Assembly: GCA_003173855.1 (NCBI GenBank)
Contig: PPGI01000010.1
Coordinates: 148,696 to 212,695 of the forward strand
Reading direction: 5' to 3'
Length of the DNA: 64,000 bases
Source: Candidatus Zambryskiibacteriota bacterium
GTDB lineage: Bacteria; Patescibacteriota; Minisyncoccia; Phycocordibacterales; DATDWN01
In this document: in pieces, positions 58,550 to 62,894 of the stretch
How the letters are laid out: each line of letters starts with the position of its first letter
How positions within the stretch are numbered: the first letter of the stretch is position 1
Position numbers and translations under genes: made by a program
The notes under the pieces: generated by a model
Seen by the model: only the letters and a program-made list of their open reading frames with translations
Database searches by the model: none
Told to the model about the DNA's origin: nothing

Positions 58550-59479
58550 TTATAATGGTTTTGGTGCAGGATACATATTAACTGGAATAGATTCCGAGAA
58601 ACAATAATGTCCAGCAGGATGATTCCAAGATTGATATCCGACAGGCCTCATATAAATATTAGGTTGTGATGCTTCTGGACTTTGAGAATTGAAATTTGCA
58701 CAAAGCTCGTAAGCTTTAGAACTTTGACCAATTAATTTGTACTCGTATGGATTACCTGTTTGCGGATCGTTAGGAATGCTTTGATATCCAGTTCCAGCAG
58801 CCAATTCACTTAGATTTTGTGGTAATGAACCTTTCATTGAGTAATAACTTTGAACATAACTATTTATATTTTGAAGGTCATTTACTTTCTGTTCATCGTA
58901 CCGAAGCAACTGCTGTGTTCGAGGAGAACCGATTACAGAAAAACCCCAAGTAATTCCGCCCACTACAATAACAAGTGCAACAATCGTCCAAACTTTTCTT
59001 GATGCAGAATTTAATTTTTCGCGAATATCTTGAATGTAATAGAAGAAAACAAGTAGAGTTAGAACAAAGAGACTAAAAACTTTCATCAGAAATCCTGTTG
59101 TCAATTCTTGTCCATCAATAAAGTAGTAAATAACTGTAACCAAATCTATTGCCATTGTTAATCCTGCTATAAAAAGTGTGATGTATGTTAGCCAGCGTCG
59201 GATTGGTAAATTTCTTTTTTGTGGATCTTTTACGTAGTCTCGCTCAAGTAACCACATTAACAAAATGTAAACTGGGAAAAATATGATCAGTGTTGCAACA
59301 GGCCAAGAAATTGTTCCAGAATAGGATCCATAATAGTAGCCACTGTTAACCTGTGGCCATGCACGGTTAATAACAGTAAACAAAAGATTAACAAGTGTGA
59401 TAACTACTGTATATAAAGCGACAATCGCTCCCAAATTTAAGAAAAAATCTTTTGCACTCGTTTTTTGATTTGGTTCCAT
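58550..59479 (-). CDS. hypothetical polytopic membrane protein with C-terminal extracytoplasmic domain
   Basis: 5-6 TM then ~110 aa soluble tail. Confidence 0.5.
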   Translation of the reverse strand: MEPNQKTSAKDFFLNLGAIVALYTVVITLVNLLFTVINRAWPQVNSGYYYGSYSGTISWPVATLIIFFPVYILLMWLLERDYVKDPQKRNLPIRRWLTYITLFIAGLTMAIDLVTVIYYFIDGQELTTGFLMKVFSLFVLTLLVFFYYIQDIREKLNSASRKVWTIVALVIVVGGITWGFSVIGSPRTQQLLRYDEQKVNDLQNINSYVQSYYSMKGSLPQNLSELAAGTGYQSIPNDPQTGNPYEYKLIGQSSKAYELCANFNSQSPEASQPNIYMRPVGYQSWNHPAGHYCFSESIPVNMYPAPKPL

Positions 59480-59548
59480 AATTTTTTATTAATTTTCTTC
59501 ATTTTAGCATAATTTAACCCTGCAAGCACTCAGCCTGCAGGGTCAAAA

Positions 59549-59743
59549 CTACTTCTCTCTCTTTGAGACTCGAAACTTCACGAGACCCATGTTTTTCCTA
59601 GCGAGATCACCAACTGCTTCCATCTCGCATCGCCCCATACCTACAGATTCTCGTGCTCGCGGATCCTCTGTCCTTGCATGGCAAATGCCATTCCGCGTAT
59701 CAAATCTAACTTCCGGATCACACTCGTACTCATAGTTATCCAT
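59549..59743 (-). CDS. hypothetical small protein (64 aa) in GC-richer patch
   Basis: ORF only; local GC elevated. Confidence 0.25.
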   Translation of the reverse strand: MDNYEYECDPEVRFDTRNGICHARTEDPRARESVGMGRCEMEAVGDLARKNMGLVKFRVSKREK

Positions 59744-59804
59744 ACAATCTCCTAGAGAGTTCTAGCTAAACTTTATCTTGATGAAGCTTAAATTTAGATG
59801 AAGA

Positions 59805-60809
59805 TTATATTTTAAACTCGATCACATCGCCGTCTTGAACTATGTAATCCTTGCCCTCTGTTCGTACGAGACCTTTTTCGCGTGCAGCAGCGTACGATCC
59901 AGCAGAAATTAAATCATTGTAATTTATGACTTCTGCACGAATAAATTTGTCTTTAAAATCGGTATGAATTGCGGTCCCAGCCATTGGTGCATTCCAACCC
60001 TTGGTAATTGTCCAAGCTCGAGTTTCATCAGCTCCAGTTGTAAAGTATGTGATCAAATTTAGAGTTTCGTAACTTTTTTTAATCAAATCATCAAAACCAG
60101 TTTGGAAAACCGGATCAACTATTACATTTGGTTTTGGCATATCTTTCGATATATCAAAAGATATGGATTCAGATGCTTCAGATGTATTTAGTGCATACAA
60201 AATTGGCTTTTCTGTTAGCAAATGCATTCCTTTCAATACGATTTTCTCTTCTGGAGTAAGTTCCACACTGTTTGCAAGCTTGCTATCTTCAAGCGCTAAC
60301 AAAACTTTTTTTAAAACTTGTTCCTCAAAAATTGCATCTTTTTTCCCAGCTTTAACATCCTTTCCTAAATTAGCTAATCTTTTTTTTACAGTTTCGGTAT
60401 CAGCTAAAATAAGTTCAAGATTTATAACCTCAATATCAGATAGTGGATCAACTTTTCCGTGAACATGAATTATGTCATCGTCTTTGAAAACTCGAACCAT
60501 TTCTAATATTGCATCCACTTCACGAATGTTTGAAAGAAATTTATTTCCAAGTCCTTCGCCTTCGCTTGCGCCTTTAACAAGCCCAGCAATGTCTACGAAC
60601 TCTACAACTGCTGGAATTGTTTTTGCTGATCGAGACAAGTCAGAAAGTTTTTGCAATCGATCATCCGGAACAGGAACAATGCCAACCGAAGGATCAATAG
60701 TACAAAATGGATAATTCTCCGCAGGCACAGACTTTTTTGTTAGTGCATTAAATAACGTGGACTTCCCCACGTTTGGCAGCCCCACAATTCCCATAGATAT
60801 ATTGGCCAT
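59805..60809 (-). CDS. ychF: ribosome-binding ATPase YchF (Obg-like ATPase)
   Basis: G1 GLPNVGKST, NxxE-type specificity region, TGS domain C-terminus (YIVQDGDVIEFK). Confidence 0.95.
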   Translation of the reverse strand: MANISMGIVGLPNVGKSTLFNALTKKSVPAENYPFCTIDPSVGIVPVPDDRLQKLSDLSRSAKTIPAVVEFVDIAGLVKGASEGEGLGNKFLSNIREVDAILEMVRVFKDDDIIHVHGKVDPLSDIEVINLELILADTETVKKRLANLGKDVKAGKKDAIFEEQVLKKVLLALEDSKLANSVELTPEEKIVLKGMHLLTEKPILYALNTSEASESISFDISKDMPKPNVIVDPVFQTGFDDLIKKSYETLNLITYFTTGADETRAWTITKGWNAPMAGTAIHTDFKDKFIRAEVINYNDLISAGSYAAAREKGLVRTEGKDYIVQDGDVIEFKI

Positions 60810-60849
60810 TCCTAAAATATGCCTTATTTTAAGCTCATTTTCAAGCTAT

Positions 60850-60878
60850 TTGACAATACTATTTTATCATGATAGTAT
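60850..60878 (+). promoter_or_regulatory. consensus sigma70 promoter (TTGACA-17-TAGTAT) driving GC-rich island
   Basis: -35 60850-60855, -10 60873-60878; AGGAGG 60885-60890; ATG 60897. Confidence 0.55.
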
Positions 60879-60954
60879 TTCTTTAGGAGGTGCCTCATGG
60901 TACTGAACGATCTGACACTGGGAGAAATGCTGGTACCCCACCCTTCTTCCCGAC

Positions 60955-61164
60955 ATGGTGCAGAAGTATGGAGACGGACCATTCAAAGTGGTCGGTCTCA
61001 ATCTCTGGACCAAACAGAACCCGAAGCTGTCAGTCGCTCCCTACAGAGTTACCCTCGAGCTTCCCAATGGAACTCGAGTGGAACTTGCCGGCGAGTGGGT
61101 CAGCCGCACCACACAAGACGACTGCGATATCTATGGCGGACCCTGTATCGGTGCAGACGCGTAA
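60955..61164 (+). CDS. island ORF A, hypothetical (69 aa); frame uncertain
   Basis: best GC3 and composition of three overlapping frames; but SD-ATG at 60897 is in a different frame (60897..61196). Confidence 0.35.
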   Translation: MVQKYGDGPFKVVGLNLWTKQNPKLSVAPYRVTLELPNGTRVELAGEWVSRTTQDDCDIYGGPCIGADA

Positions 61165-61182
61165 CAGTGGGAGTGTTCTTTC

Positions 61183-61268
61183 GGGTGAGTTGTTAACTCG
61201 CCCTCCTACCAAAGTTTTCAAATTAAGATTTATGAATTGAAAGTTTTGGTGGGACGAAATAGTTTCGT
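61183..61268 (+). repeat. structured intercistronic element, copy E1
   Basis: GC hairpin 61183-61203, 17-bp stem 61205-21/61237-53 pairing only with 3 G·U on plus strand, hairpin 61254-68. Confidence 0.7.
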
Positions 61269-61282
61269 CTTGCGGCTTCCCG

Positions 61283-61570
61283 GTGAAAGGTCGAAACGAT
61301 ATCATCGTGACTCCGCTCAGTTTCTTGGAAGAAAATCAAGGCATCAAAGAAGAGCATGTGAAGTACGAGCTTTCGAAACTTCACGGCTGCTCACCGTGCG
61401 ACATCACGATCTCGTTCTCACATGGAGTTCGAGCTCGTCGAGACGGAATTCCCAACAGTCGGGAGTACTACTTCGCTTCAAAGGCTGAAGAAAGAAGGTA
61501 CAAAGCCAGTCGTCGGTACTCACATGGTCTTGATCCGGACATGCCACCGCCGGGATGGATTCCCGATTAG
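61283..61570 (+). CDS. island ORF B, hypothetical (95 aa, GTG start)
   Basis: high GC3; stop 6 nt before E2. Confidence 0.4.
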   Translation: MKGRNDIIVTPLSFLEENQGIKEEHVKYELSKLHGCSPCDITISFSHGVRARRDGIPNSREYYFASKAEERRYKASRRYSHGLDPDMPPPGWIPD

Positions 61571-61576
61571 TTCTTC

Positions 61577-61650
61577 GGGCGAACCTTGTGTTCGCCCTCC
61601 CATCAAAGTTTTCAAAAGGTTGAAAGTTTTGGTGGGACGAATAGTTCGTC
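61577..61650 (+). repeat. structured intercistronic element, copy E2
   Basis: GC hairpin 61577-97 (different sequence, same structure), 17-bp stem 61599-615/61620-36, hairpin 61637-49. Confidence 0.7.
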
Positions 61651-61752
61651 TTGTTCTTTGTGAGGTGAAAAATGTTGTAGCGTTTCAATCCCTTTTTGAA
61701 TCTGACTTCTTTTGACTAAAACCAACAACATCCGAATTAAGAGGAGTGTACA

Positions 61753-62217
61753 ATGCAGAATCTCAAAGACCAACTCCTCCGCAGCGGACTTGTTTCAAAA
61801 GAACAGGTTCAAAAAGCGGAGGACGAACGTCGACAACAGGAAGCGCTGGCCAAGTTCGAGAAGACGTGTGAGCTACGTGACTTCGTCACAGCTTATCCAA
61901 AATTCAAGGACGGGCTTCGTGGACTTCCTCCTGACACGCCAATAACCATTGATCCAGAGCTCGAACAAAAGATGATCTGGGCCAGATGGCCACAGCGTGG
62001 CAGGAAGCTCGAGACAGGATACGGTTCACCGTATCTCGGTACGACTCTCGTTGTACGAATTGACCGACACACTGGCTTGGCACATCGATTCCCGATCGAG
62101 CCAGATCAGACTGGACGTCCAGTCTGGGAAATTGGCAGTAACCAATTTGCTCATTGCGATGTCGCTGTCGTCGAACAGGGCGAGAGAGATGTCGAGATCT
62201 TCGTCAAACTCGTCTGA
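61753..62217 (+). CDS. island ORF C, DUF2058/YaiL-like protein
   Basis: AAGAGGAG SD; N-terminus MQNLKDQLLRSGLVSKEQ resembles YaiL-family start; 154 aa. Confidence 0.5.
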   Translation: MQNLKDQLLRSGLVSKEQVQKAEDERRQQEALAKFEKTCELRDFVTAYPKFKDGLRGLPPDTPITIDPELEQKMIWARWPQRGRKLETGYGSPYLGTTLVVRIDRHTGLAHRFPIEPDQTGRPVWEIGSNQFAHCDVAVVEQGERDVEIFVKLV

Positions 62218-62230
62218 CCCACCTCAACAC

Positions 62231-62290
62231 GGGGAACAACGCGTTCCCCGTCCCATCAAAGTTTTTAATTAGATTGAAAATTTTGGTGGG
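62231..62290 (+). repeat. structured intercistronic element, copy E3
   Basis: GC hairpin 62231-49, 17-bp stem 62252-68/62274-90 with structure-preserving substitutions. Confidence 0.65.
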
Positions 62291-62315
62291 ACAATTAAGT
62301 TCATTGAGGTGACTC

Positions 62316-62561
62316 ATGCGTTTGCAAATGATTTACATTACTGAGTCTATGGGTTCGAATAAGAGTATTGAATTTCGTGACATAGATGACATCAGGAAAG
62401 TGCAGATGGAAATGCATTCGGGCTCACTCAAGTTTTCTGACCCAAGGATTCTTGCAATCGTTCCTGAAAAGTTAGCATTTGAAATTGCACTAGTATTCCA
62501 AAAGGAGTTGAAAATAACAATTTCATGGTCAGCATCGAGCGAGCATGACTTCCAAAAATAG
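62316..62561 (+). CDS. island ORF D, hypothetical (81 aa)
   Basis: GAGGTGA SD 4 nt upstream; followed by strong terminator. Confidence 0.5.
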   Translation: MRLQMIYITESMGSNKSIEFRDIDDIRKVQMEMHSGSLKFSDPRILAIVPEKLAFEIALVFQKELKITISWSASSEHDFQK

Positions 62562-62569
62562 AACCTGAG

Positions 62570-62599
62570 CCCCACGAATCGTTCGTGGGGTTTTTGTTT
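62570..62599 (+). terminator. Rho-independent terminator ending island operon
   Basis: ccccacgaa-tcg-ttcgtgggg 9-bp stem followed by TTTTTGTTT. Confidence 0.8.
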
Positions 62600-62633
62600 A
62601 TAAATTTTACATAAATGAGAAAGGCACCTTTTT

Positions 62634-62894
62634 TCACGGTGCCCTTCGAAGTTGTACACGAGAATGAACAAGTCGTAGTGGCTTTATGACAGATTTCATT
62701 TCGCTGCCAGAGCAAATGTATTCGTGGCTGATTTTTCTTATTGTCTGATCAAGAAATTCAACCGTAATGTACTCAATCTCGAAAAGAGGATCCTCAAGAT
62801 TGATGATCTTGCCTGTCTGCCACTTCTGTTTTCCCTCATCAGTGAAAACATCAACGCTTGCGCCCAGATCAAACTGAACCTGGTAATTTTCCAT
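62634..62894 (-). CDS. hypothetical protein (86 aa)
   Basis: ORF convergent with island; no motif. Confidence 0.35.
   Translation of the reverse strand: MENYQVQFDLGASVDVFTDEGKQKWQTGKIINLEDPLFEIEYITVEFLDQTIRKISHEYICSGSEMKSVIKPLRLVHSRVQLRRAP

Follow-up and report, generated by a model that had tools for sequence, protein, structure and literature searches.

What is the folded element that recurs, always in the same orientation, between the small genes at the end of a 64-kb stretch of Candidatus Zambryskiibacteriota DNA? The stretch, called the window in the following, comprises 64,000 nucleotides (nt) of contig PPGI01000010.1 (assembly GCA_003173855.1, forward strand, positions 148,696 to 212,695). 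Its last 3 kb hold four small genes, here named A to D, and three copies of the element, the modules E1, E2 and E3, in the order A-E1-B-E2-C-E3-D. A first-pass annotation, made from the letters alone, had described the modules as RNA structures that could act as an intercistronic stabiliser or processing site. The comparisons presented below show that the module lies where one gene unit borders on the next, in arrays of horizontally circulating genes that run from a promoter to a terminator, and the modules are an undescribed, Patescibacteria-wide family of three-hairpin intercistronic connectors. As to their action, we favour, tentatively and with somewhat less than even confidence, an intercistronic RNA processing and insulation module that also serves as a recombination joint.

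The three modules are on the + strand, E1 at 61183-61272, E2 at 61577-61659 and E3 at 62230-62305, with start-to-start distances of 394 and 653 nt, and they follow the preceding stop codon by 18, 6 and 12 nt, respectively. Their common plan is a variable GC hairpin (H1), a conserved A/U-rich hairpin of 17 base pairs (H2) and a small hairpin (H3); after these come the single-stranded core (C)TTGTTCTTT and the ribosome-binding site of the next gene. The parts are the following:

61183..61203, + strand: H1 of E1, a 9-bp GC hairpin found by folding, GGGTGAGTT-gtt-AACTCGCCC
61205..61253, + strand: H2 of E1, 17 bp with a 15-nt loop, CCTACCAAAGTTTTCAA / TTGAAAGTTTTGGTGGG, covariance model score 59.8 bits
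61254..61272, + strand: H3 of E1, ACGAAA-tag-TTTCGT (61254-61268), and CTTG (61269-61272)
61577..61597, + strand: H1 of E2, found by folding, GGGCGAAC-cttgt-GTTCGCCC
61599..61636, + strand: H2 of E2, with a 4-nt loop, CCCATCAAAGTTTTCAA / TTGAAAGTTTTGGTGGG, covariance model score 61.5 bits
61637..61659, + strand: H3 of E2, ACGAA-tag-TTCGT (61637-61649), and core CTTGTTCTTT (61650-61659)
62230..62250, + strand: H1 of E3, found by folding, CGGGGAAC-aacgc-GTTCCCCG
62252..62290, + strand: H2 of E3, CCCATCAAAGTTTTTAA / TTGAAAATTTTGGTGGG, covariance model score 61.2 bits
62291..62315, + strand: 3' part of E3 without a clear H3; GTTCATT (62299-62305), then GAGGTG and the start of gene D

Pattern search, alignment and folding agree on these three structured copies, which is where the first-pass annotation had placed them. 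The pattern CAAAGTTTTYAA-N(2-20)-TTGAAARTTTTGGTGGG has three matches in the window and none in 100 shuffles, the 3' arm of H2 taken alone occurs only at the three modules, and the aligned regions have invariant H2 arms. A search of the window with the H2 covariance model gave no fourth copy. The folding energies on the + strand are −35.8, −35.4 and −38.8 kcal/mol for E1, E2 and E3 (z-scores of −4.7, −6.2 and −7.1), compared to −27.9, −29.4 and −26.8 kcal/mol on the reverse strand, so that the + strand is more stable by 6-12 kcal/mol. The earlier description of H2 as a 17-bp stem with three G·U pairs in each copy, in which the differences between copies preserve the pairing, was borne out. For H1, the statement that the stem is kept holds, while the sequences are not completely different as had been claimed; they are related (GGGyGA.../...TCGCCC) and differ by compensatory changes, and the stem of E3 had been counted one pair short. 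No convincing third hairpin is present in E3.

We now consider the relatives of the modules. The loci collected for comparison with the window are numbered L001 to L071. About 60 further distinct copies were found in metagenome-assembled genomes (MAGs) of Patescibacteria and in groundwater metagenomes, all of them on the sense strand between small, mostly unrelated and GC-richer genes. Scans with the exact pattern located the module in MAGs labelled Kaiserbacteria, Saccharibacteria and Niyogibacteria, and in 56 metagenome contigs, mostly from groundwater; about 46 distinct copies are left when chance matches and matches to ribosomal RNA (rRNA) are removed. The H2 covariance model adds diverged copies in known loci (six in L004, three in L037 and three in L002), and every one of these has the orientation of the main copy in its locus. 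Two exact copies, both in one array, were found in each of the contigs of 369 and 484 kb; the element is therefore clustered and not dispersed. The covariance model and the search for homologues that the first-pass annotation had suggested thus brought up many homologues with covariation, and no copy was found inside protein-coding sequence.

H1 is present in 46 of 46 copies as a nearly pure Watson-Crick GC hairpin of 6-14 bp with many unrelated sequences, and it ends 1-3 nt before H2. In H2, 96.2% of the cells are paired among 43 distinct sequences and 10 of the 17 pairs are changed on both sides; none of 500 shuffles reaches the covariation score, and the pairing falls to 62-66% if the partner is slid by one column. 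Pair 10 is G·U in all 54 copies of the first set and in 41 of 43 in the wider set, the exceptions being G-C, while pair 4 is A-U, A·C or G-C. It is important to keep in mind that the sequence conservation of H2 is overstated, because the collection scans demanded exact arms and the family sample is biased accordingly; the copies found by the model or anchored on proteins correct this in part. H3, a small hairpin, is found in 51 of 58 copies with a mean folding energy of −6.4 kcal/mol (−2.6 kcal/mol for shuffles), and in some families the GGG closing H2 is part of H3 as well.

On the 3' side, a core GTTCTTT (with at most one mismatch) lies within 55 nt of the module in 46 of 61 copies, against a background of 14%. 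It often reads CTTGTTCTTT, and GGAGG and the start codon of the following gene come 0-15 nt after it. The shorter GTTC is found at most 55 nt from H2 in 43 of 62 copies (background 18%). On the 5' side, an open reading frame (ORF) on the same strand ends at most 80 nt upstream in 48 of 61 modules, at a median distance of 34 nt. A GTTC(TT) can also stand directly 5' of H1, as in the window at 61173-61180 and 61570-61576 and in L031, L037, L004 and L071; 7 of 62 modules have it immediately 5' of H1, compared to 5% in the background, which gives direct GTTC repeats flanking the module.

Two loci (L002:1402-1487 and L009:5727-5800) have a second, unrelated perfect palindrome, for example CACTTTGATACATCGATGTATCAAAGTG, nested in the loop of H2, which suggests that the apex of H2 tolerates or attracts insertions. 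At L025:4726-4790 there is an orphan H3-like hairpin with TGTTCTTT that has neither H1 nor H2 and is preceded by GTTCTTA directly after a stop codon. This may be a remnant junction; the 260 nt before it (L025 4465-4725) contain no convincing ORF.

The role of the module as a boundary can be seen most clearly in loci that were found via their proteins and not via the pattern. L066 and L067 are syntenic relatives of the window, with the DUF5671 and YchF genes followed by promoter and array. In them, the array opens with a homologue of gene C (75% identity) directly after the orthologous promoter, and a different gene, of 169 amino acids (aa), comes next. The nucleotide homology between window and L067 begins exactly at the G of GTTCTTT (window 61653, L067 2222) and stops just before the GTTC after E3 (window 62296, L067 2858). 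In L069, the same promoter, leader, gene C and H1 are followed by a normal terminator, without H2-H3, and in L070 gene B stands alone with its own promoter, H1 and terminator, again without H2-H3. Gene B is the first gene of the array in L068, where a full module follows it, and in L071 a B-like gene has modules on both sides. H2-H3 is also absent after the last genes of the arrays in the window and in L067. Pairs of mosaic loci give the same picture, in that gene, H1 and H2 are common on one side of the module and the other side is wholly different, or the reverse.

In sum, H1 travels with its gene, and H2-H3 and the core occur where two genes join. As the connector is the only sequence common to otherwise unrelated units, it is the place at which units are joined, exchanged and lost. 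The structure itself is maintained between orthologous modules: H1 of E3, CGGGGAAC/GTTCCCCG in the window, is CGGGGAGAC/GTCTCCCCG in L067, a compensatory difference, and pairs 12 and 13 of the L067 H2 are flipped from U-A to A-U. Such compensatory change between orthologous modules indicates purifying selection on structure. The informative junctions lie right after GTTC (the C and D units in the window, and L067) or after CTTG (E1 joined to the truncated gene B), and only four or five junctions are informative. Mapping of breakpoints with BLAST was mostly uninformative, because the shared H2-H3 masks the crossover where both partners carry a module.

A further occurrence of the helix is in rRNA. 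Four pattern matches lie inside 16S rRNA genes (L008:5343-5388, L015:4101-4152, L035:4984-5032 and L043:212-259), and alignment to the bacterial small-subunit model places them in a 38-nt insertion at the tip loop of helix 40 (h40; model positions ~1149-1170). Both H2 arms are contained in it, with the G·U and the CCC/GGG base, and the helix lengthens the h40 tip by 30-40 nt in these genes, although the 16S gene of L008 is only ~78% identical to the other three in the h40 region. Many short ORF-less insertions have been reported in a survey of rRNA genes from the candidate phyla radiation (CPR), and some were suggested to be intervening sequences excised by RNase III (PMC11270868). L043 has, in addition, an extra 16S segment of ~416 nt (L043:484-899) compared to L015 and L035, probably an insertion or intron of the kind known in CPR rRNA genes.

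How would such a module work? In the reading that we favour, a factor binding double-stranded RNA, either an enzyme of the RNase III type or a sequence-specific protein, would recognise H2 in the polycistronic mRNA, and cleavage in or beside H2 would separate the cistrons. H1 would remain on the upstream message as a protective 3' hairpin, while H3 and UUCUUU-GGAGG would give the downstream message its 5' end and its region of translation initiation. Unrelated, horizontally acquired genes would thereby be insulated from one another, and the units would be exchanged by homologous recombination at the connector. An RNA reading fits because H2-H3 is absent after last and stand-alone genes, because the orientation is exclusively sense, and because the same helix is found in rRNA. 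The processing or stabilising role put forward in the first-pass annotation is still the best mechanistic reading, and it fits since H2-H3 is seen where another gene follows; what had not been anticipated is the role as a cassette boundary throughout the Patescibacteria, the damage to genes A and B and the occurrence of the helix in 16S rRNA.

The assignment to RNA on the gene strand, also proposed earlier, stands in so far as the sense strand folds better: in the family, 32 of 46 copies fold more stably on the + strand (p=0.002), and H2 has 133 G·U pairs that become A·C mismatches on the other strand. The G·U argument comes from H2 only, however, and is weaker than had been stated, because H1 has no strand asymmetry (18 G·U pairs on the + strand and 24 on the − strand) and because pair 4 is an A·C mismatch, which would be G·U on the other strand, in 14-17 copies. 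Folded sense-strand DNA would fit the same strand data. Besides these two counts, several other points weigh against the processing and insulation module. Classical substrates of RNase III have ~20 bp or more, and H2 with its 17 bp is below this length. The conservation of the H2 sequence across classes is higher than a nuclease reading structure only would need. The second copy in L040 and the modules in L003 and L029 stand directly before a terminator, with no gene downstream. The junctions cluster at a specific tetranucleotide instead of being spread over the shared sequence, which is more like site-specific cutting than homologous recombination. Finally, the cleavage with its trans-acting factor, and likewise any stabilisation of the message, are inferred.

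The main rival reading is that the module is a recombination site that folds as sense-strand single-stranded DNA (ssDNA), like attC or the ends used by HUH rolling-circle enzymes (IS91, IS200/IS605, Rep). A trans-encoded enzyme would then recognise H2/H3 and cut after GTTC or CTTG, and a unit between direct-repeat sites would be excised as a circle and inserted 3' of another GTTC, giving an integron-like array without an integrase. We consider this doubtful on the whole, but a good deal speaks for it. The arrays consist of co-oriented, promoterless and mostly ORFan small genes behind one promoter, their content varies between syntenic relatives at the same locus, and there is one array per contig, even in those of 369 and 484 kb. 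Their GC content is 47-57% in hosts of 33-50% GC, higher than that of the flanks in 16 of 17 loci, the window being one of the 17; such constancy suggests either that the cassettes come from a common external pool of genes or that their composition is constrained. Conserved mismatches in hairpins are typical recognition features of enzymes acting on ssDNA, the signatures of the modules are genome-specific, as in chromosomal integrons, and GTTC and CTTG, after which the junctions lie, are both target tetranucleotides of the IS91 family. The elements of that family have ends with imperfect subterminal palindromes beside the GTTC cleavage site (PMC13181058). On the other hand, no recombinase, integrase or HUH gene recurs among the 147 neighbouring ORFs (counting families matched by at least two), and none adjoins the island in the window. 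There are three hairpins instead of one, without inverted R''/R' boxes or bulged bases, the last genes of the arrays usually lack a module, and the left ends of the units have no origin-like hairpins. The presence of the same helix in 16S rRNA would be left unexplained, and the informative junctions are few, the crossover being hidden where both partners carry the module. A broader picture, unlikely as a whole in our estimate, would be a Patescibacteria gene-cassette system without an integron integrase, with GTTC-bounded units and a three-hairpin sense-strand site; either an enzyme would cut after GTTC/CTTG in the manner of HUH enzymes or processed-RNA intermediates would have the unit ends, and the helix common with 16S h40 would link the expression or mobility of the cassettes to the ribosome or to rRNA processing.

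The 16S helix is the starting point of another proposal, namely that H2 mimics an extended h40 and binds a ribosomal or ribosome-associated protein, or the machinery for assembly and processing of the 30S subunit, so that free ribosomal components would control the translation or stability of accessory genes, as in the autoregulation of ribosomal proteins by rRNA mimicry. The recurrence of the arms, with the G·U and the CCC/GGG base, in four loci of such diverged lineages agrees with this, as do the conservation of the H2 sequence beyond structural need and the location of H2 within ~20-40 nt of the next Shine-Dalgarno site. However, no locus holds both a module and the h40 extension, the flanking genes are unrelated to ribosomes, and the orthologous H2 copies in L067 and L068 (second copy) have lost the G·U and changed 6-7 arm positions with the pairing kept, which favours a structural over a sequence-specific reading; we therefore regard mimicry as improbable. 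Very improbable, in our view, is also that H2 or H2-H3 is a selfish palindrome of the repetitive extragenic palindromic (REP), miniature inverted-repeat transposable element (MITE) or Rickettsia palindromic element (RPE) type, inserting at GC-rich hairpins and without host function. It would account for the presence next to two hairpins unrelated to each other (following H1 and within the h40 loop), for the further palindromes nested in the H2 loops of L002 and L009, and for the GTTC directly 5' of H1 in some modules, E1 and E2 among them, which resembles flanking repeats. It is at odds with copies that are few and clustered, always in one array (three in 64 kb, two in the contigs of 369-484 kb), with the strictly sense orientation, the fixed register relative to H1 and the next Shine-Dalgarno site and the compensatory evolution of orthologues, and no match was found in the viral, phage and plasmid collections. 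The last possibility considered was an unusual factor-dependent terminator or attenuator that tunes read-through into the downstream cassettes. H1 does resemble a terminator stem right after the stop codon, and a hairpin of similar kind, with a T-run, closes the last gene of an array. But a U-tract is absent after H1, H2 and H3, canonical terminators close the arrays in the same organisms, stand-alone units have H1 plus a separate terminator, and, as no internal promoters are predicted, termination would silence the genes downstream; to us this has hardly any probability. A simple intrinsic terminator, a GC hairpin with a direct U-tract, had already been thought unlikely in the first-pass annotation and is rejected here as well, the terminator scan reporting none at any module; the only terminator-like site with a strong stem is at 62567-62593 after gene D.

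Seen against known systems, the module belongs to no known family; its organisation resembles that of integron cassette arrays, and its likely action that of intercistronic RNase III sites. The likeness to integrons and to clusters of attC sites lacking integron integrases (CALIN) concerns, in addition to the gene content and variability described above, the structured, strand-biased site at the 3' end of each gene, similar within a genome, the GTT-containing core at the unit boundary, and cargo of toxin-antitoxin and regulator type. Still, an attC site was rejected on its core boxes and hairpin architecture. Namely, the inverted R'' (RYYYAAC) and R' (GTTRRRY) are missing, the core GTTCTTT having pyrimidines where purines are required, there is no AAAGAAC at the 5' side of the module, and a second core copy, where present, is a direct repeat. 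The three separate hairpins, with a bulge-free H2, differ from the single imperfect attC hairpin with its extrahelical bases, the sense strand folds better here whereas attC uses the bottom strand, the sequence of the central helix is conserved across classes, and the last gene is usually without a site. The arrays also lack an IntI tyrosine recombinase, which can be absent in CALIN too.

The RNase III hairpins between cistrons of one transcript, as in the T7 early region and lambda, and the intervening sequences of rRNA are likewise stable structures whose flanking hairpins could stabilise the processed ends, and the helix of the module is the same as that of the rRNA helix-tip insertion, where intervening sequences sit. 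Those sites, however, are without conserved sequence, whereas H2 is conserved, with only 17 bp and a putative cleavage; nor are they boundaries of mobile gene units. REP elements and bacterial interspersed mosaic elements (BIMEs) share with the module the imperfect palindromes just after stop codons within operons, and REP elements stabilise the upstream mRNA. They differ in being species-specific and dispersed in tens to hundreds of copies in both orientations, in contrast to a module that is always sense, in one array per genome (three copies in 1.1 kb in the window) and found across Patescibacteria classes. As for IS91 ends, a possible similarity lies in the CTTGTTC after H3, in the junctions after GTTC/CTTG (four informative ones, hence small numbers) and in the palindromes nearby; no transposase gene, HUH Y2 or other, was found within an array or close to one, each unit consists of one small gene, and no origin-type end was identified.

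The statement in the first-pass annotation that no named motif matches was supported by both databases and literature. With Rfam release 15 the window gives no match at the gathering threshold and only chance-level matches (E>0.2) at relaxed settings, so there is no assignment to a known repeat, and 20 related loci give tRNAs only. We found no paper with the arm sequences, and no description under CPR integrons, CPR structured RNAs or PARCELs. The latter, palindromic amphipathic repeat coding elements, are repeats within coding sequence that encode amphipathic peptide repeats (PMC2996958), and were rejected as the modules are intergenic. A protein-coding repeat was dismissed on similar grounds, the modules sitting between stop codon and Shine-Dalgarno site. 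For a promoter in the module, with TTGAAA of the 3' arm as −35, the families do not share a −10 at 16-18 nt, and none was reported by the promoter scan. An operator for a neighbouring TrmB-type regulator was also considered, but the spacing of the arms varies from 3 to ~50 nt, the window has no such gene, and the palindrome in the promoter region of L025 is a different one. If GUUCUUU were an anti-Shine-Dalgarno sequence, it could form only ~6 weak pairs, with two wobbles. A CRISPR array, with repeats of ~28-37 nt and regular short spacers, does not agree with starts that are 394 and 653 nt apart and have protein genes between them.

We now return to the window. The GC-richer island that forms its last 3 kb has 47.7% GC, compared to 35.7% in the remaining window, and is bordered by a gene for a YchF-type GTPase (59805-60809, minus strand) and by minus-strand genes from 62634. 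Apart from the modules, it has the following features:

60850..60878, + strand: promoter-like site of the array; hexamers TTGACA and TAGTAT 17 nt apart, the latter preceded by TG (sigma-70-type scan)
60879..60896, + strand: leader of the first unit, TTCTTTAGGAGGTGCCTC, with TTCTTT and Shine-Dalgarno site in the same order as 3' of each module (by comparison with the family consensus)
60897..61164, + strand: cassette gene A, frameshifted; ATG at 60897 by the Shine-Dalgarno site 60885-60890; encodes MVLNDLTLGEML
61272..61570, + strand: cassette gene B, 5'-truncated; homology begins inside the ORF of 135-aa homologues; listed ORF 61283-61570
61660..61752, + strand: leader of gene C; contains GAGGTG and, at 61672-61680, the two-codon mini-ORF ATG TTG TAG; conserved in L067 and L069
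61753..62217, + strand: cassette gene C, 154 aa, an intact ORFan; three matches in 5.8 billion proteins, one being the window's own copy
62316..62561, + strand: last gene D, 81 aa; no homologue besides itself and no module after it
62567..62600, + strand: intrinsic terminator of the array, a 12-pair stem (62567-62593) and then a T-run

The promoter-like site is the sole good + strand match of the sigma-70-type scan within 60700-62750, and it is orthologous to the promoter before gene C in L067 and L069, with CCTTATTTTAAGC...TTGACA in common. With one promoter on the + strand, one strong terminator and no internal promoter match, the island A-E1-B-E2-C-E3-D looks like a single transcription unit, in which the elements would be transcribed in sense orientation. 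The leader of gene C lies directly 3' of the promoter in L067 and L069. The Shine-Dalgarno site with the two-codon mini-ORF, ~70 nt before the true start of gene C (window 61663-61680, L067 2232-2249, L069 346-363), may be a start-stop element regulating this gene.

Judged by their homologues, genes A and B are decayed cassettes. The family of gene A comprises widespread small proteins with the motif MVxNDLxLxExVxWD...YGEGPFxVVGL...AGEWF, and its intact homologues have 78-119 aa and start with MV(L/I)NDL.L.E.V.WD...YGEGPF. In the window, a frameshift follows after ~12 codons, where ~4-6 codons (VWDREA in homologues) are apparently deleted, and the remaining protein is in the frame of a 69-aa ORF (60955-61164, +1 frame, from 60955). 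Gene B has lost ~42 codons compared to the 135-aa homologues in L068 and L070 and is without a Shine-Dalgarno site. The core of E1 is broken here between CTTG and TTCTTT and joined to the inside of the gene, so that CTTG is fused to its middle; gene B, which has three matches among 5.8 billion proteins, is thus probably a dead cassette.

The genes that flank modules elsewhere are small and diverse, with 72 distinct proteins and 60 of 67 clusters being singletons, and apart from one relative of gene B they have no homology to genes A-D of the window. Inspection of the translations by eye pointed to receiver domains, HicB, sigma-70 region 4, deaminase, MOSC and zinc ribbons. Each unit consists of one small ORF, and no transposase domain was found in any of them. 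What recurs among the neighbouring ORFs are regulators of the TrmB and PaaX types. In at least 16 loci (L025:2506-3905, L001:6329-7141 and 14 others), a TrmB-type winged-helix protein of 250-270 aa, whose C-terminal domain is unassigned, is encoded 5' of the array. Its gene is divergent from or co-directional with the array and often has as neighbour the gene of a PaaX-type protein that contains a Cas2-like domain; within 1-4 kb there are also rny (RNase Y), hup and the gene of the CCA-adding enzyme. A Y1 transposase, as encoded by the RAYT (TnpA-REP) genes associated with REP elements, is not among the recurrent families in the ~8-14 kb around each array. In the window, which has no TrmB-type regulator, the neighbours are leucyl-tRNA synthetase (LeuRS), DUF5671, the YchF-type GTPase, a response regulator and a kinase, with no recombinase adjoining the island. 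A second, smaller GC-richer patch (0.43-0.45) is located at 59450-59800, between the DUF5671 gene and ychF. It holds a 64-aa ORF (59549-59743, minus strand), and since L066 and L067 have a cupin gene there, it is another variable spot.

Finally, we consider what the modules mean for their hosts. The ultra-small Patescibacteria, or CPR, make up a large share of bacterial diversity; their genomes are tiny, few mobile elements have been recognised in them, and the ways in which they obtain and express new genes are poorly understood. In these organisms the module marks compact, promoter-proximal arrays of GC-richer ORFans that differ between close relatives at the same site, and it may point to a new signal for RNA processing, to a new system of gene cassettes or to the two together. 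If it is a signal for RNA processing and insulation, it would be a new and widespread cis-element and would give access to mRNA decay in bacteria that do not grow on their own. As a recombination site, it would represent a cassette-capture system outside the integron paradigm. The helix in common with 16S h40 offers a concrete, testable link to a trans-acting factor, and, whichever role applies, the flexible gene pool of CPR genomes would be located by a covariance model built on the module.

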